A DNA stretch of 64,000 nt from Candidatus Woesearchaeota archaeon. GTDB taxonomy: Archaea; Nanobdellota; Nanobdellia; UBA10117; GCA-020343615. Position numbers and translations under genes: made by a program. Below are positions 1,497 to 22,374 of the stretch, one piece after another. Position 1 is the stretch's first letter. Each line of letters opens with the position of its first letter. The notes below the pieces were generated by a model. It did no database searches. It was not told the DNA's origin and was given only the letters and a program-made list of their open reading frames with translations. Location of the stretch: the NCBI GenBank assembly GCA_020343615.1, contig CP070803.1, positions 855,273 to 919,272 of the forward strand, written 5' to 3'.

Positions 1497-2622
1497 GAAC
1501 GAATGATGCTATTAAAGTTGTAACTAGAACTACTGAAAATATTATATTCAAGACTAACTCAGGATTCGGAAATAATGGAGCTGAAGATAAAGCTAAAACT
1601 GAACAGACTACTCCCTTGCCTCCTCCTAAAAACAAAATATTTCTTTCACCTCTGCTCTTCACAGAAGCTGAAATATACACAGCAACGTATCTTGAGAGTA
1701 GAACTAGTATGACTACAAAAAAGATTATGGCAACGTTAATGAATGTGAGTTCTACCCCTAAGAAGGTTCCAAGTATAACATAAACAAAAATAAGCAGTAA
1801 TAATTCCAATTCTCCCCCAAAGCTTTTTATTATCCGCGGTGGTGCTGGCTTTAAGTTAGCGAATATTGCTCCTAAAATCAAAACTGAAATTATGCCACTA
1901 CCTCCTACTAAGTTAGTAACTCCATATAATAGTAAGATAGCGCCTAAGGTAAGAATATGTGTTTTTACTTCTTCCTTAAATTTACAGATTATTCTGTATA
2001 TTAGATAGCCGAAAACAACACCCATTCCTACGCCTAAAAAAATCTGGTACATGAAAATCTTTATTGCTCCCGCAAACCCTGTTCTTTGTTTTAAAATGAG
2101 TAAATTAGATATAACTATAACAAACACTACAGCCACCACGGAATTAAGCATTGATTCTAGATTAATTATGTTCTTGATGTTTTCCAACTTACGACCGAAG
2201 CTTTCCAGTATTGGGCGCATTATTGTTGGATCTGTGGATGAAAGTAAAGCACCTAGTAGAATAGCAAGCTCTGCTCTAATATTTAGGAAAACATATGAGA
2301 ATAAACTCACTATGCTAATAATAATCAGTGGGCCTATTAGGGACAAGGAAGTAAAGACTAATGCTTGGCTTTTAAGTCTGGTTAAATTAACAGTGTTTCC
2401 TGCTTCAAAAATAACTATAACTAAAGCAAATGTTACTAATACATTTATTACCTGAGAAAATTTAATAGGGTCAAATAATTTGGTTACTGGTCCTAGAATT
2501 ATACCTAAAACTAAAAGTGGGAGTACTATAGGGATTTTCTTTTTATTTGCTAGAACTAAAAATAAGGCACCTAAAATGATTATTGTACCTATGACGCCTA
2601 TTATTAGAGATGAATCAGCCAT
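1465..2622 (-). CDS. cation:proton antiporter (Na+/H+ exchanger family)
   Basis: 385 aa polytopic membrane protein with the typical Na_H_exchanger pattern (..LLSSTDPT.., repeated G-rich helices). Confidence 0.75.
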   Translation of the reverse strand: MADSSLIIGVIGTIIILGALFLVLANKKKIPIVLPLLVLGIILGPVTKLFDPIKFSQVINVLVTFALVIVIFEAGNTVNLTRLKSQALVFTSLSLIGPLIIISIVSLFSYVFLNIRAELAILLGALLSSTDPTIMRPILESFGRKLENIKNIINLESMLNSVVAVVFVIVISNLLILKQRTGFAGAIKIFMYQIFLGVGMGVVFGYLIYRIICKFKEEVKTHILTLGAILLLYGVTNLVGGSGIISVLILGAIFANLKPAPPRIIKSFGGELELLLLIFVYVILGTFLGVELTFINVAIIFFVVILVLLSRYVAVYISASVKSRGERNILFLGGGKGVVCSVLALSSAPLFPNPELVLNIIFSVVLVTTLIASFVPIFFLDRLMK

Positions 2623-2666
2623 TAAGAAATAATAAGCTATACTAGTTTAAAATATTATTTAACTAT

Positions 2667-3671
2667 CTAAAAGAACTCATCTAGACCTTCTTGTGACCTT
2701 TCACCTTTAGCTTCAGAAAGCTTCTTCAATGCGTTCTCAACTCTTGTCTTGGAAAAATCATGCTCATTGCAGAGAATATGAAATATATCATTCTTTTTTG
2801 GCTCTGTCCAAACTAGATCAAAGTCTTTAGCTATTGGTGGCTCTAAGAACATTTGCTCGACCCTTTTCCAGTGTTTTATTTCATTAGTATATTTTGCAAA
2901 TTGTAGGTCCTTAACAATTTCTAATGCTTTCTTGGGTCCTATTCCTTTGACTCCTTTGTTATAATCTGTCCCTAGTAGAATCGCCAGTTTTATCAACTGT
3001 TCTTTAACTATTTTCAGGTTATTTAAAGTTTCAACTAGACTAATCTTTTGCGGTTTTACTTCCACATAGGCTTGTTTTCCAGGAAGTTTTCTTTTTCCTG
3101 AAACTGAAAGGTTTCTGATTAACAGTGGTGCGCCGAAAAGTAAGGAATCATAATCCTGGCTTACTACTGCATGAACCATCCCTTCCTTTACCATCCATGC
3201 AGCCTGAGCTTCACCTTCACCAATTGCTTGAACATATGGTAAACCCATTGCTACAATAAGTTTCTTACTTTCAGAAACCATTTCCTTGGTTAATCTAGAA
3301 GTCTGCTGAGCCCACTTTCTAGCTTCTTCTACGTCGCCTTTTTCAAGTGCTTTTTTATGCTCCTCTGTTGCTTTTTCCTTAATAGCTCTCCGTTGTTCTT
3401 GTACGTCTGCTTTTAATTCTGGAGCTTGACCATCAAAGACAAAGCAAGGTTTGATCCCTAACTCGAGTAAATTAATAGTTCTGTGAAATAATCCTGATAA
3501 ATGAGAAGTTACTCTCCCTTTGCTGTCCATTAGAGGTGTGCCATCTCTTTGTCTGATTATAGAAAGAAATTGGTATAATGTATTGTAGGCATCAATAGCT
3601 AATTTTTTAGTTTTCAGACTACCTAATTCGATGTCATGAGCTACAACTAAGCTACCCAAATCAACTCCCAT
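2667..3671 (-). CDS. fen: flap endonuclease 1
   Basis: MGVDLG..LAIDAYN.LYQFL..DS.GR.TSHL.G.F.R..NLLE.GIKP.FVFDG signature. I prefer the ATG at 3671, which is preceded by GGAGGTGA, over the track start at 3686. Confidence 0.9.
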   Translation of the reverse strand: MGVDLGSLVVAHDIELGSLKTKKLAIDAYNTLYQFLSIIRQRDGTPLMDSKGRVTSHLSGLFHRTINLLELGIKPCFVFDGQAPELKADVQEQRRAIKEKATEEHKKALEKGDVEEARKWAQQTSRLTKEMVSESKKLIVAMGLPYVQAIGEGEAQAAWMVKEGMVHAVVSQDYDSLLFGAPLLIRNLSVSGKRKLPGKQAYVEVKPQKISLVETLNNLKIVKEQLIKLAILLGTDYNKGVKGIGPKKALEIVKDLQFAKYTNEIKHWKRVEQMFLEPPIAKDFDLVWTEPKKNDIFHILCNEHDFSKTRVENALKKLSEAKGERSQEGLDEFF

Positions 3672-5437: not shown

Positions 5438-5857
5438 TTATTTCATCTTTTTTGTTATATTTATCTTAAAATTGCAGTGTTCACACTCAAAAACAACGGC
5501 GTCTGCTCTTGATTTCTTTCCAGAATTCGGGTCCGTAATCGTGATTTTTTGCCTTTTGAAAGGAACTTGAGTTGATCCCTGTTTCTTACAATTTGGACAA
5601 GTATATTCGATGTTGGCTGTCAAAGTATCTTCATATTCTTCTTTTTCTGCAGTATATCCGCACTCTGGGCAAATATATTCAGTTGCTCTAGTTTTTGGCT
5701 TTCCTGTCTTTGGGTCAATTGGTTTTCCCATTAGACCCTTTTTACAACTTGGGCATTCACTTCTAAAAACCCAGACCTTTGCTTTTCCATCTGGAAGAAT
5801 AGTTCTCTGAGTAAAGTATACTAATTCACTCATTGACTTTGGTTGTCTTAGTTCCAT
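5438..5857 (-). CDS. multi zinc-ribbon protein, unknown function
   Basis: 139 aa with four CxxC pairs (CPSC, CPEC, CPNC, CEHC) arranged as two ribbon modules. Confidence 0.45.
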   Translation of the reverse strand: MELRQPKSMSELVYFTQRTILPDGKAKVWVFRSECPSCKKGLMGKPIDPKTGKPKTRATEYICPECGYTAEKEEYEDTLTANIEYTCPNCKKQGSTQVPFKRQKITITDPNSGKKSRADAVVFECEHCNFKINITKKMK

Positions 5858-5882: not shown

Positions 5883-6623
5883 TTAAAAAATTTTAGAAGT
5901 TTCAGTATTTAGATTATTATATAAATTAAAAATAATACTTTTTCGTTCTTTAAGATTTGATCTTGGAAGTCCTTTTCCTATTTTTTTCCAAATGTCTATT
6001 TTAGAAGTATGTTTCGGATTGTTAAATCCTATCTCTTTAATCCATCGATTTATGTCTTCTTTTTTGTATAATACGAGTGAATAGACTGGATTTAAATCTC
6101 GTTTACCTTTGTATGGTTTTTTAAAATATGGTCTAAATCCTAATTTTTCAGATATTTGTTTTATCTGAAATATAAGATTTTTTGAAGTACTACTAATTTT
6201 TATTCTTGGTTGCGTGTGTTTACCGGAAGTACTTTTATTGAAGTAAACTGTACCATCTGTATCAAATATTCCTCGCAATACATTTCTAATTAAAGATTCT
6301 GTCATAAGTCTTTCTGGTATTTCTATATTCGTTTTCTTACCGGGTTTCAAACCAATATTTCTTAAGTAATCTACAACTGCTTTATTAAATATTTTAAATC
6401 CGTAGACTCCATTTTTTGAATAATCTCTTCCACTTAATTTATAATCCAATAAAGGTTTTCCAATAGTTTTGTTAAACAAAGGAATTACTGTTTTATCATA
6501 GTACTCTCTTTCTTCTATTGAATCTCCACATACTGAAAGTTCACTATATCTTTTGTTTACGCTAATGCAACCATCTCCAATACATATTCCTATAAACTCT
6601 GCCAAATCTTTGGTTAGTTCCAT
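5883..6623 (-). CDS. LAGLIDADG homing endonuclease (double-motif, free-standing)
   Basis: 246 aa with two LAGLIDADG-type motifs (FIGICIGDGCIS and LRGIFDTDGTVYF). The ATG lies 6 nt after the tRNA-Leu 3' end on the same strand. Confidence 0.85.
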   Translation of the reverse strand: MELTKDLAEFIGICIGDGCISVNKRYSELSVCGDSIEEREYYDKTVIPLFNKTIGKPLLDYKLSGRDYSKNGVYGFKIFNKAVVDYLRNIGLKPGKKTNIEIPERLMTESLIRNVLRGIFDTDGTVYFNKSTSGKHTQPRIKISSTSKNLIFQIKQISEKLGFRPYFKKPYKGKRDLNPVYSLVLYKKEDINRWIKEIGFNNPKHTSKIDIWKKIGKGLPRSNLKERKSIIFNLYNNLNTETSKIF

Positions 6624-6629
6624 TTAAAA

Positions 6630-6769
6630 TGCTGGGAACCGGATTCGAACCGGCGAAGACACTAAGTCACAGGATGACTTACCACCTTAATGAGCGGTCT
6701 TAAGTATGGCAGATGTCATAAAATTTTTATCGACATCTCCTGCCCCTTTGACCACTCGGGAATCCCAGC
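6630..6769 (-). tRNA. tRNA-Leu (anticodon UAA) with two introns (33 nt at 6706-6738, 23 nt at 6676-6698)
   Basis: GCTGGGA/TCCCAGC acceptor, A73, 3-bp D stem with GAGTGGTCAAA loop, long variable arm, GCCGG-TTCGAAT-CCGGT T arm. After removing two BHB-bounded introns the anticodon arm is CAGGA-CTTAAGA-TCCTG. Confidence 0.8.
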
Positions 6770-6822
6770 AGTGATTATATTTAGTTTTCTATTCATTTAA
6801 AAACTTGATGGTAACTAGAATA

Positions 6823-7254
6823 CTATTGAATGTAATGAGAAATACGTTCTCTTGCTATAAGTTCACGTATTTCTTTTGAGTTTTCATGTAAATCATCTTT
6901 AAGTTTTGCTAGGTCTTTTAAAATTCTATTATTACTGACATTAGATTCACCTATCATAAGAGTATATGCACGCCCTATTCTATCTATCCTATAGTAAATA
7001 CGATTAACAATATTGAATACCTCTTGTATCTCCTTTAAATTTGCTTTTCCATTTCTTATTCTTTCAGAATGCTCCTTTGCCATGGTAATATACTTTAAGG
7101 CTTCTTCTCCAATGGCTTCTAATTCGTGTACTATTGTTTCTTTTGTTATTAAGTCCTTTTCATTTTTTCTTAAGTCTTCTTCTAATTTTCTCAATTGACT
7201 TAACTCTTTTTTTGTGAGATTTATCTCATGATTCAAAAGTTTTAGTGTATTCAT
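6823..7254 (-). CDS. hypothetical coiled-coil protein
   Basis: 143 aa ORF rich in charged and heptad-like sequence. No recognisable motif. Confidence 0.4.
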   Translation of the reverse strand: MNTLKLLNHEINLTKKELSQLRKLEEDLRKNEKDLITKETIVHELEAIGEEALKYITMAKEHSERIRNGKANLKEIQEVFNIVNRIYYRIDRIGRAYTLMIGESNVSNNRILKDLAKLKDDLHENSKEIRELIARERISHYIQ

Positions 7255-8964: not shown

Positions 8965-9090
8965 GGGGCCGTGGGGTAGTTTGGACCATCCTCCCAGCCT
9001 CGAGTGTATATTTATCAATAATTACACTCGCTGGAACGGGGACGGATTGCCGGAACGCTGGTGACCCGAATTCAAATTTCGGCGGCCCCA
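8965..9090 (+). tRNA. tRNA-Pro (anticodon GGG) with two introns (37 nt at 9000-9036, 14 nt at 9042-9055)
   Basis: GGGGCCG/CGGCCCC acceptor, A73, TGGGGTAG D-arm pattern, CCGAA-TTCAAAT-TTCGG T arm. Two nested BHB motifs give the anticodon arm CCAGC-C(C/U)GGGGC-GCTGG. Confidence 0.7.
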
Positions 9091-11618: not shown

Positions 11619-11714
11619 CCCGGCTTAGCTCAACTTGGCAGAGCGTGCGGCTGTAGATTGCTTATCAGCGTAGCTGAAACCGCAAGGTTCCTGGTTCGAT
11701 TCCGGGAGCCGGGA
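11619..11714 (+). tRNA. tRNA-Tyr (anticodon GUA) with 22-nt intron (11657-11678, position 37/38)
   Basis: C1-G72 pair and A73 as in archaeal tRNA-Tyr, GCTC/GAGC D stem, TGCGG..CCGCA anticodon stem, loop CTGTAG|intron|A, CCTGG-TTCGATT-CCGGG T arm. Confidence 0.85.
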
Positions 11715-11744
11715 CTCTAATTTTCAATAGAGGGGGAGCCTGTT

Positions 11745-19087: not shown

Positions 19088-20573
19088 AGGGAAAATATTA
19101 TTGGATGACTATTTCAAGAGAAATAGTTTAGTCGAAGCTGATATAAATTCTTTTAATGAATTTGTAGACTGGAGATTGCAAAAATTAGTTGATGAGTTAG
19201 GCTCCCCAACTCCAGCAGTAGTTCCTGCAGAAACTGAAGAAGTTAAAATTGAATTCGGAAAAATCCGAATTGGTAAACCTTCGGTAATCGAAGCTGATGG
19301 TGTAAGAAGATTGATACTTCCTTCTGAAGCAAGATTGAGAAAATTGACATATGCTGCCCCACTATACTTAGAGATAGGTTTAGTTATAGATGGAATAGAA
19401 AGGGAAAGAAGAGAAGTAAGAATCGGAGAAGCACCAGTTATGATAAAGTCTAAGATCTGTCCTCTAAGCAAAATGAGCAGAGAGGAGCTTATTGATGTGG
19501 GAGAAGATCCTTATGATACTGGCGGATACTTTATAATTAATGGAACTGAAAGAGTAATAATTTTCCTAGAAGACTTAGCACCTAATACTTTATTCGTAGA
19601 AAAGAGCATGGGTGCTTCTACACATTCAGCAAAGATTTTTTCAGAAAGAGGGTTATACAGAATTCCTCATACTGTAGAAATTAAAAAAGATGGAATGATA
19701 CTCGTGTCCTTTACATCTCTACACAAGGTACCTATTTTTGTATTGATGAGGGCATTAGGTCTTAAAAGCGATGCAGATATAATCAAAGCGATCAATTCAG
19801 ATCACGGTGAAGAAGAAATATTCTTGAACTTATATGAATTCTTAGAGATAAAAAACGAAAATGATGCTAAACAATTTATTGCAAGAACTATGGGTCTTGG
19901 TTCCCAACCAGATGAAAGAAAAATAGAGAGGATTAATTATCTAATAGACAGCTTCCTATTCCCGCATATTGGAGGCAGTGAAAAGGATAGGATAAAGAAA
20001 GCTTACTTCTTGGGAAACATGGTTCGTAAGTTGCTCTTGCTGAAGCATGGCGAAATCGAAGAAGATGATAAAGACCATTATATGAACAAAAGAATAAGAT
20101 TATCCGGTGACTTGCTTGAGGATCTTTACAGAAAAAGTCTAAAAAGTTTTGTTAAGGATATGCTTTATGTTTTCCAAAGAGGAGTTAGAAGAGGGAAGAT
20201 ATTACCTATAAGTTCTATTGCTACAACTCGCGTAGTCACTTCTAGAATAAGGAGAAGCATGGCTACTGGAAGCTGGTCTTCTGGTAGAGAAGGTATTAGT
20301 CAGAGACTAGACAGAGAAAATGCTCTTTCATCTCTATCACACTTAGGAAGAATCGTATCTCCTCTGCCTGCTTCTCAGGAGAATTTTAAGGCGAGAGAAT
20401 TACATCCTACTCATTGGGGAAGATTGTGCCCAGTAGAATCTCCAGAAGGAAAAAATATTGGCTTAAGAAAAAATATATCTTTAATTGCGGGAAACACACC
20501 TGAAATAAAGGAAGAAGAACTAAAAAAGAATCTAAAAGTTATAAAAGAACTTGGACTTGAGGAAATTGGTTAA
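19080..20573 (+). CDS. rpoB2: DNA-directed RNA polymerase subunit B'' (Rpo2N)
   Basis: 497 aa. N-terminal half of the B/Rpb2 homolog (..GYFIINGTERVI.., ..HP.HWGR.CP.E.PEG.NIGL.KN..). Confidence 0.9.
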   Translation: MRKGKILLDDYFKRNSLVEADINSFNEFVDWRLQKLVDELGSPTPAVVPAETEEVKIEFGKIRIGKPSVIEADGVRRLILPSEARLRKLTYAAPLYLEIGLVIDGIERERREVRIGEAPVMIKSKICPLSKMSREELIDVGEDPYDTGGYFIINGTERVIIFLEDLAPNTLFVEKSMGASTHSAKIFSERGLYRIPHTVEIKKDGMILVSFTSLHKVPIFVLMRALGLKSDADIIKAINSDHGEEEIFLNLYEFLEIKNENDAKQFIARTMGLGSQPDERKIERINYLIDSFLFPHIGGSEKDRIKKAYFLGNMVRKLLLLKHGEIEEDDKDHYMNKRIRLSGDLLEDLYRKSLKSFVKDMLYVFQRGVRRGKILPISSIATTRVVTSRIRRSMATGSWSSGREGISQRLDRENALSSLSHLGRIVSPLPASQENFKARELHPTHWGRLCPVESPEGKNIGLRKNISLIAGNTPEIKEEELKKNLKVIKELGLEEIG

Positions 20574-20574
20574 A

Positions 20575-22374
20575 ATGACTGATGTATTCTTAAACGGGAC
20601 ATTAATAGGAACCGTGAAGAACGGTGAGGAATTTGCTAGAAATTTAAAAGAAAAAAGAAGAGATGGTAGTTTATCAAAATACCTCAACGTACATGTAGAT
20701 GAAGCTCTAAATACTGTTAATATATTTCTAGATAAAAATAGAGTAATAAGGCCTTTAATAAGAGTAGAGAACGGAAAGTCTCTATTAACTGAAGAGCATC
20801 TCGAACAAGTAGAAAGAGAAGAACTAACGTGGGAAGACTTAGTGAATCAAAATATTGTAGAATACCTTGATCCTTCTGAAGAAGAAAATGCGTATATTGC
20901 TCTTGATGAAAAAGATTTGAGTAAAGAACATACTCATTTGGAAATAGACCCTGTTGGTATTTTTTCAATATGTACTTCTCTAGTTCCTTATGCCAACTTT
21001 AACATGAGTTCAAGATTAAATAGAGGTCAAAAAACTCAAAAACAGGCTATGGGAGTTTATGCTCTTAACTTCTTAACCAGACTTGATACTAGTGTAAATA
21101 TTTTACACTATCCTCAGAGACCTCTTGTTAGAAGTTATACTGAAAAATTACTAGGAGAAGGTAAGTTAGCTGGCCAGAATATAGTCATAGCAGTAACAAA
21201 TTATGAGGGATACAACATGTCAGATGCCATTGTCCTCAATAAATCATCTATAGAAAGAGGTTTTGGATTATCTACTTATTATAGACCATATGAAGCTACT
21301 AAGTCTAAATACCCTGGAGGTCAGACTGATAGAATATGCATTCCTGACAAAGAAGTTAGAGGTTATGGTATAGAAGAAGAATATCGTTACCTTGAAGAAG
21401 ATGGAATAATCTATCCTGAAGTTGCAGTTAAAGATGAAGAAGTATTAGTAGGTAGAACTTCTCCACCTAGATTCTTAGGAAAACTAAGAACCTTTGGTAA
21501 TGCTACTTCAACAACAAATGATACTTCTGTAAGAATAAGAAGTGGTGAAGATGGAATCGTTTCTAAAGTAATCGTAACTGAAAATGAAGAGGGAGATAGA
21601 ATAATAACTGTTAAAATAAGGGATACGAGAAAGCCTGAAATTGGAGACAAGTTCGCATCAAGACACGGACAGAAAGGAGTCGTAGGAAGAATTGTGTCTA
21701 GAGAAGACTTACCTTTCACTGCTTCTGGAATTGTTCCTGATGTTGTTTTCTCACCTAATAGTCTTCCTAAAAGAATGACTTTAGGACACATTATTGAAAT
21801 ACTTGCTGTCAAGGTAGGAGCATTAAATGGAAGGTAAATTAATGGTACTAGTTTTGATTCTGAAAATGTTGATGACTTAAGAAACGAATTGCTTTCTCTA
21901 GGTTTTAGGGAAGATGGAAGCGAGACTATGTACGATGGAAGGACTGGTGAAGAATTTGAAGCAAGAATTTTCATAGGTAACATGTACTATTTAAGATTAA
22001 AACACCAGGTTAGTGATAAAATACAAGCTAGATCAAGAGGTCCTGTTCAATTATTAACAAGACAGCCAACAGCTGGAAAGGCTAAACAGGGTGGTCTAAG
22101 ATTCGGAGAGATGGAAAAAGAAGCGTTAATTGCTCATGGTTCATCTATGTTGATGAAGGAGCGGTTCAGTTCTGATAGAGCCGAATTTTATGTATGCAAT
22201 AAATGCAAGAATTTAGCTATATTTGATGAATTTGATAACAGAGCTAAATGCGATATTTGTGGAGAGAAGACGAATATATCTAAGATAGAGCTAGCTTATG
22301 CTTTTAAGCTCTTACTAGATGAATTGAAAAGCTGTGGGATAAACCCAAAGTTAATATTAAAGGATAAATTCTAA
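20575..22374 (+). CDS. rpoB1: DNA-directed RNA polymerase subunit B' (Rpo2C), frame interrupted by one in-frame TAA at 21835-21837
   Basis: Track ORFs 20551..21837 and 21889..22374 share a frame. Conserved blocks (GDKFASRHGQKG, ARSRGPVQLLTRQP, GGLRFGEME, C-terminal Zn ribbon) run straight across the stop. Confidence 0.85.

Follow-up and report, generated by a model that had tools for sequence, protein, structure and literature searches.

Genes for tRNA that carry several bulge-helix-bulge (BHB) introns are said to have been described by Marck & Grosjean in 2003 and by Sugahara et al. in 2007/2008 from Thermoproteales, Thaumarchaeota and Korarchaeota. In archaea, the splicing endonuclease EndA recognizes the BHB motif and cuts both of its bulges, and a ligase joins the exons (PMC3239211, PMC4090602). 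It has long been known that a single archaeal tRNA gene can hold several introns, that introns can occupy non-canonical positions, and that general tRNA finders fail on such genes (PMC4033280, PMC4090602). Within the DPANN superphylum, ARMAN-2 has tRNA genes with two introns (PMC3239211), and a survey of Woesearchaeota, Pacearchaeota and Nanohaloarchaea reported endonucleases with an extra loop as well as many disrupted tRNA genes (PMC5829648). The predicted tRNA sets of DPANN genomes are incomplete, and undetected disrupted genes remain that call for manual curation (PMC5829648). Nested archaeal tRNA introns have also been mentioned, and RT-PCR has demonstrated ordered processing in a red alga, Cyanidioschyzon merolae (PMC3728597).

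Here we describe a 140-nt tRNA-Leu(UAA) gene with two introns at positions 6630-6769, minus strand, of the window, by which we mean the whole 64,000-nt stretch of DNA that was analysed. The host is a tiny, uncultured member of DPANN, and we put at roughly 90% the probability that its gene is a functional tRNA-Leu(UAA) of class II, with an anticodon arm interrupted by two predicted protein-spliced archaeal introns.

Like other multi-intron archaeal tRNAs, which have up to three short introns, the gene has a 3-4-3 motif at each junction and one intron at position 37/38, and it is missed by general tRNA finders. Unlike the multi-intron tRNAs of the TACK archaea, it belongs to a DPANN host labelled Woesearchaeota, both of its motifs are strict rather than relaxed, and its close relatives differ in the introns they carry (0, 1 or 2). 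With the disrupted tRNAs of DPANN it shares the superphylum, non-canonical intron positions and the occurrence of two-intron genes. However, the ARMAN-2 introns lie in the T loop (53/54 and 59/60), whereas here an intron at 30/31 splits the 5' strand of the anticodon stem. As with nested introns, one intron has to be removed before the motif of the last can be complete. Two differences separate the locus from C. merolae: the order proposed here is read from the sequence alone, and the precursor would have to switch its fold between the cuts, because motif 1, the motif of the 30/31 intron, needs the D stem open. An earlier judgement that the arrangement is unusual but not unprecedented agrees with the literature, in which multiple and non-canonical introns, their abundance in DPANN and nested motifs are all on record (PMC5829648, PMC3239211, PMC3728597). 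We regard the gene as a well-supported new example of a type already known in archaea, one that leaves the current picture of archaeal tRNA splicing unchanged.

Gene layout and predicted spliced product

The features of the locus, listed in the direction of transcription, are as follows.

6795..6803, minus strand: TATA-like box TTTTTAAAT, at -34 to -26 from the first tRNA base; a probable promoter
6739..6769, minus strand: exon 1, tRNA positions 1-30 (acceptor 5' strand, D arm, G26 and C27-G30), colinear with intronless orthologs
6741..6744, minus strand: 5' strand of the motif 1 central helix, GGCA (positions 25-28), which pairs with UGCC at 6708-6711 in intron 1
6706..6738, minus strand: predicted intron 1, 33 nt, at the non-canonical position 30/31; hairpin GAUGUC...GACAUC, with UGCC pairing with exon G25-A28
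6699..6705, minus strand: exon 2, 7 nt, A31 plus C32-G37, with the anticodon UAA at 34-36
6676..6698, minus strand: predicted intron 2, 23 nt, at the canonical position 37/38; hairpin CCGC...GUGG, with UAAG pairing with C32-A35
6630..6675, minus strand: exon 3, comprising A38, the anticodon-stem 3' strand, the long variable arm, the T arm, the acceptor 3' strand and A73
6626..6629, minus strand: TTTT run directly 3' of A73; probably a transcription stop

Read in order on the minus strand, positions 6630-6769 consist of GCTGGGATTCCCGAGTGGTCAAAGGGGCAGG / AGATGTCGATAAAAATTTTATGACATCTGCCAT / ACTTAAG / ACCGCTCATTAAGGTGGTAAGTC / ATCCTGTGACTTAGTGTCTTCGCCGGTTCGAATCCGGTTCCCAGCA, where the second and fourth pieces are the proposed introns. 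The layout given in the original prediction holds throughout: the acceptor stem (GCTGGGA/TCCCAGC), D arm, variable arm T-GAC-TTAGT-GTC-TTC, T arm (GCCGG-TTCGAAT-CCGGT) and A73 all read as claimed, and a string search recovered both intron intervals, 6706-6738 and 6676-6698. The gene has the marks of a class II tRNA-Leu, namely the variable arm GAC-UUAGU-GUC, A73, the anticodon UAA and a 3-bp D stem. The 3' CCA is not encoded. Splicing in silico, with junctions ...GGGGCAGG / ACUUAAG / AUCCUG..., produced the expected 84-nt mature tRNA-Leu(UAA), which ARAGORN calls as tRNA-Leu(taa) with a normal class II cloverleaf. When either intron alone was removed in silico, ARAGORN in intron mode detected the other as an intron. 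The splicing of the precursor itself is inferred.

We coded a strict BHB rule, in which two 3-nt bulges flank a central helix of 4 bp and each bulge is cut after its second nucleotide. Both of the motifs that had been drawn by hand satisfy it. At 30/31, the intron 1 motif has 4/4 central base pairs (GGCA/UGCC), flanked by a 7-bp inner helix and by a 3-bp outer helix in which A22-G24 pair with C32-U34. At 37/38, the intron 2 motif (motif 2) has 4/4 central base pairs (CUUA/UAAG) and an inner helix of 5 bp. Shuffled introns yielded a strict 3-4-3 motif at rates of 6e-4 (intron 1) and 1e-3 (intron 2) in 200,000 trials each, and we therefore do not attribute the motifs to chance. Enumerating BHB motifs over two rounds of excision gave the originally predicted solution the longest helices, along with weaker alternatives that include a register-shifted motif 2 leading to an 82-nt product with a 5-nt loop. 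No box C/D motifs were seen by eye in introns 1 and 2.

The tRNA-Leu(UAA) gene was called neither by ARAGORN in its default mode nor by the Rfam tRNA model, whether at the gathering score or at E-values up to 10; at the latter setting, Rfam matched only an 18-nt fragment of the T arm. Across 34 long ORFs of the window TTA is the commonest leucine codon (43%), and the gene at 6630-6769 is the sole UUA decoder found within the window. An annotation based on general finders such as ARAGORN or Rfam would falsely report this decoder as missing.

The window also encodes proteins of an archaeal host, including FEN-1 (XPG) and a member of the PcrB family. An adenylate kinase (Adk) gene adjoins the tRNA-Leu locus, and its closest relatives are 70-77% identical. 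Relatives recognized by their neighbouring proteins are named Woesearchaeota, Aenigmatarchaeota or Nanoarchaeota, with Aenigmatarchaeota among the more distant Adk relatives.

Related genomes with no, one or two introns

The strongest evidence for the predicted exon/intron structure, and the evidence that decides it, comes from comparison with related genomes. We reached orthologous loci through the neighbouring Adk and Zn-ribbon genes, whose order is kept on the related contigs, and obtained six orthologs. Contigs L157-L159 stop short of the Leu locus, and L160-L164 are not syntenic. Four relatives (L168, L153, L155 and L166) have intronless tRNA-Leu genes of 84 nt, the same length as the predicted spliced product. 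L167 carries only a 37/38 intron, which at 50 nt differs from intron 2 of the window, and L156 carries both introns, with an intron 1 of 32 nt. Intron 1 is thus present in L156 and absent from 5 of the 6 orthologs. The proteins that neighbour these genes are 70-84% identical in the relatives, which carry 0, 1 or 2 introns, and such a set at one syntenic locus provides a small natural series on the gain and loss of archaeal tRNA introns.

In a MAFFT alignment, the intronless genes show gaps exactly 33 and 23 columns wide where the window gene has its predicted introns. The anticodon arm of L168, CAGGACTTAAGATCCTG (CAGGA-CTTAAGA-TCCTG), is identical to the predicted spliced arm, and the L168 gene scores 59.5 bits with the Rfam tRNA model. 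Exon 2, ACTTAAG, is invariant in all seven genes (the window gene and its six relatives). Cloverleaf pairs are standard in 161 of 161 cells (23 pairs in 7 mature sequences); 9 of the 23 pairs change on both sides, and none of 500 shuffles reached such pairing and covariation. A pair in the variable arm covaries across the orthologs, from A-U to G-C. Upstream of the gene, the TATA-like box is kept at an equal distance, as ACCATCAAGTTTTTAAATGAA in L156, L155 and L168 and as TTTTTAAATGAA in L153.

We rejected alternative splice registers, which leave loops of 5 nt or anticodons that make no sense and which conflict with the intronless orthologs. The comparison with these orthologs is the sole ground that excludes the 82-nt register.

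The two-intron ortholog in L156 makes it possible to compare the introns with sites under little constraint. Between the window and L156, the Zn-ribbon and Mpg genes agree at only 53-54% of their four-fold degenerate sites. All differences in intron 1, a single substitution and a single deletion, fall within the hairpin loop, and its stem and bulge positions are identical. Intron 2 has five changes, two in the loop and three in the hairpin stem. All three stem substitutions keep pairing: a C-G pair becomes U-A through changes on both sides, and a G.U pair becomes G-C. The central-helix strands and bulges of both motifs are unchanged. As judged from this alignment, purifying selection acts on the intron helices, which lends the predicted splicing indirect support. 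We also sought paralogs of the introns, as expected from transposition, in 1.27 Mb of sequence and found only the L156 ortholog.

These comparisons bear on the suspicion that the locus is a decaying tRNA pseudogene with two insertions, its motifs drawn by wishful thinking. The failure of both ARAGORN in default mode and the Rfam tRNA model (E up to 10) to find the gene would fit such a history, as would a minimum-energy fold of the full-length RNA that is not a cloverleaf. However, the exons and the intron helices are kept in L156, with compensatory changes, despite about 47% divergence at neutral sites, and the exons fit the intronless orthologs, with cloverleaf pairing complete (100%). The shuffle probability of about 1e-3 per motif, the conserved promoter box and the standing of TTA as the commonest leucine codon count against decay as well. 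We consider a pseudogene very improbable, and untenable in view of how well the introns are conserved against a neutral identity of 53-54%.

A free-standing ORF resembling LAGLIDADG_3 homing endonucleases (Pfam E-value 2.7e-12) occupies window positions 5883-6623 on the minus strand. It starts 6 nt 3' of the tRNA-Leu gene and lies between this gene and that for the Zn-ribbon protein (5438-5857). The 10 nt with which it opens, ATGGAACTAA, recur at the start of the Zn-ribbon ORF and look like the footprint of an insertion. At the Leu site, L153 and L165 have the ORF, but L156, L155 and L168 do not. No record matched the window protein exactly.

A homing endonuclease gene so close downstream could suggest that the inserts are self-splicing group I or group II introns, or a mobile element, rather than substrates of the splicing endonuclease. 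Three observations weigh against this. No Rfam family matches the tRNA-Leu region. The tRNA gene does not contain the endonuclease gene, and the latter occurs independently of the tRNA-Leu introns, all four combinations being found across the relatives. Finally, ribozyme introns are far larger than 33 or 23 nt. We give the idea next to no credence and retain the reading of two protein-spliced BHB introns.

Anchoring on the T arm and acceptor stem, a scan of genome contigs returned no ortholog, its matches being mostly bacterial tRNAs and archaeal tRNA-Met genes. A scan of metagenomes anchored on the D arm yielded, among the matches listed, mostly intronless tRNA-Leu genes of 81-84 nt; also among the matches listed were L114 and the multi-intron genes L151, L040 and L097, which the strict solver failed to splice. 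The gene in L114 (SL_8KL_010_SEDDRAFT_10010211, 2547-2668, plus strand) is a tRNA-Leu(UAG) whose single intron, of 38 nt, also falls at 30/31 and has a central helix that uses positions 25-28. It differs from the window gene in being another isoacceptor, in its unrelated intron sequence and in having no second intron, and its contig is unrelated.

Mutually exclusive motifs and a proposed order of splicing

As had been proposed, the outer helix of motif 2 depends on the loss of intron 1. Its length rises from 1 bp in the primary transcript to 6 bp without intron 1, so that the intron 2 motif is strict only in the spliced intermediate. Because motif 2 is complete only after intron 1 has gone, the two introns fall within the definition of nested introns.

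The complete motifs 1 and 2 exclude each other because they share C27, A28 and C32-U34. In motif 1, C27 and A28 belong to the central helix and C32-U34 to the outer helix. In motif 2, C32-U34 lie instead in the central helix, and C27 and A28 lie in the anticodon stem that acts as its outer helix. Besides C27 and A28 from the anticodon stem, the central helix of motif 1 recruits G25 from the D stem, and the motif as a whole withdraws G23-G25 from that stem.

In the predicted ensemble of the precursor, the central-helix pairs of motif 1 have a probability of about 0.4-0.6, and its weakest pair has a probability of 0.2-0.6 at 20-55 °C in both the window and L156. Motif 2 and the anticodon stem have a probability of 0 in the full precursor ensemble of both sequences. 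When the intron 1 region is folded locally, motif 1 is the minimum-energy structure. In full-length RNAfold predictions, motif 2 and the cloverleaf are unpopulated while intron 2 is present, even without intron 1 (P below 0.04), and the spliced intermediate in its motif 2 fold lies 7.6 kcal/mol above the minimum.

The structures predicted for the precursor contain two 8-bp helices that compete with motif 2 and recur in L156. The first, at window positions 6663-6681 (minus strand), is the perfect hairpin UAAGUCAU-CCU-GUGACUUA, in which the 3' end of intron 2 and A38-U39 pair with G43 and the variable arm. The other joins 6692-6699 with 6750-6757 (minus strand), where the D-loop sequence GAGUGGUC pairs with GACCGCUC, made up of G37 and the 5' half of intron 2. 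These helices would mask motif 2; they may be a real masking structure or may reflect a limit of the nearest-neighbour model. We do not take the failure of RNAfold on motif 2 as a refutation, because the comparative evidence is direct.

The following pathway would account for both introns. The gene would be transcribed from the TATA-like box, and the primary transcript would fold into motif 1, with G25-A28 in the central helix and A22-G24 paired with C32-U34 in the outer helix. Since motif 1 uses these nucleotides, neither the D stem nor the anticodon stem could form at this stage. EndA would cut both 3-nt bulges of motif 1, and an RtcB-type ligase would join G30 to A31. The RNA spliced of intron 1 would then refold into the cloverleaf, whose 5-bp anticodon stem would serve as the outer helix of motif 2, and the same enzymes would remove the 23-nt intron at 37/38. 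The ends of the tRNA would be trimmed, and CCA would be added, as none is encoded.

Removal of intron 1 first is the likelier order, though not a proven one, because the precursor ensemble contains motif 1 but not motif 2, and because the local fold is motif 1. A strict enzyme would suffice for this order, as both substrates are strict motifs when intron 1 goes first. The original prediction went further and held that the arrangement implies an order of splicing. The part that stands is that a contiguous outer helix for motif 2 needs intron 1 gone; to say that this implies an order exceeds the evidence, since a relaxed endonuclease could cut motif 2 without its outer helix.

Whether the order would be obligatory turns on the enzyme. 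If the endonuclease of this lineage needs a complete motif with both flanking helices, intron 1 must go first, and we regard the chances of this as evenly balanced. In its favour are the growth of the motif 2 outer helix from 1 to 6 bp on removal of intron 1, the sharing of C27, A28 and C32-U34 that makes the complete motifs exclusive, and the precursor ensembles of both species, which populate motif 1 but not motif 2. In that sequence of events each motif is a strict 3-4-3, which makes a relaxed enzyme needless, and archaeal introns are on record whose motif forms only after others have been processed (PMC3728597). Against an obligatory order, relaxed specificity is suspected for the L3-loop endonucleases of DPANN (PMC5829648), and enzymes of that kind cleave motifs in which one flanking helix is missing (PMC3239211). 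Compared with the fold that holds complete motif 1, one with both motifs relaxed costs only about 3 kcal/mol more, and motif 2 is not predicted even without intron 1. Nor did the locus supply an enzyme to type: a profile built from solved EndA sequences found no match in the window and about 150 kb of related loci (best E-value 0.58).

Some weight also lies with independent cutting, in which a relaxed endonuclease would remove the introns in any order and the shared nucleotides would be without consequence. In the primary transcript, motif 2 already keeps its central helix, both bulges and the 5-bp inner helix, and a fold that combines the cloverleaf, the intron 1 hairpin and motif 2 comes to -35.9 kcal/mol, compared with -36.9 kcal/mol for the motif 1 fold. 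The two introns of the tRNA-Pro gene in the window, only 5 nt apart in the anticodon loop, also suggest a tolerant enzyme. All of the evidence for an obligatory order counts against independent cutting, however, as does the 33-nt insertion, which breaks the anticodon stem 1 bp from the 3' bulge of motif 2. Independent cutting is a serious possibility, but one that we would not ourselves back. The mutually exclusive pair of motifs offers a simple substrate for asking whether DPANN endonucleases need the full strict motif.

A broader proposal joins these threads: that a clade of Woesearchaeota is gaining and losing tRNA introns now, and that the 30/31 intron imposes a fold switch, from a non-cloverleaf precursor with its D stem open to a refolded RNA that exposes the second site only after excision, along with an obligatory order and an endonuclease that accepts only strict motifs. 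Taken as a whole, we consider this speculative and rather unlikely.

Other tRNA genes in the window and its relatives

The original tally of the window, 6 tRNA genes of which 3 carry 5 introns between them, was borne out; four of the genes were found by the tools, and the tRNA-Leu and tRNA-Pro genes complete the count. No further tRNA signals appeared in the window at E-values up to 5. The two other intron-bearing genes have the following features.

8965-9090, plus strand: tRNA-Pro(GGG)
9000-9036, plus strand: tRNA-Pro intron, 37 nt, at 32/33, BHB-bounded
9042-9055, plus strand: tRNA-Pro intron, 14 nt, at 37/38, BHB-bounded, 5 nt from the first
11619-11715, plus strand: tRNA-Tyr(GUA), with a 22-nt intron at 37/38, found only by ARAGORN -i and as a 25-nt insertion in the Rfam alignment

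The tRNA-Pro gene is the second that both ARAGORN in default mode and Rfam missed; ARAGORN in intron mode miscalls it as tRNA-Ser(cga) with a 51-nt intron. Its predicted spliced loop, CCGGGGC, equals the loop of the intronless ortholog in L155. All five orthologs found (L155-L159) lack introns, and the two introns occur in the window lineage alone, which suggests that they were gained there very recently. The tRNA-Tyr intron has one U-U mismatch in its central helix when checked by hand, so its motif may be relaxed; motif enumeration did not recover it.

An unrelated metagenomic tRNA-Leu gene in L151 (from position 6892, plus strand) has a 30/31 intron with the same GGCA/UGCC central helix and seems to hold additional introns in the variable arm and the T arm. 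In the more distant relative L163, whose Adk is 65% identical, intron-bearing tRNA genes form dense clusters at 2940-3460 and 19260-20572, where ARAGORN calls such as Phe(aaa) and Leu(aag) look unreliable. One of these clusters directly follows a LAGLIDADG ORF of 246 aa (2201-2941). In L155, a gene for an RNA polymerase subunit (19128-20672, plus strand) contains an intein that bears a LAGLIDADG domain according to precomputed Pfam annotation.
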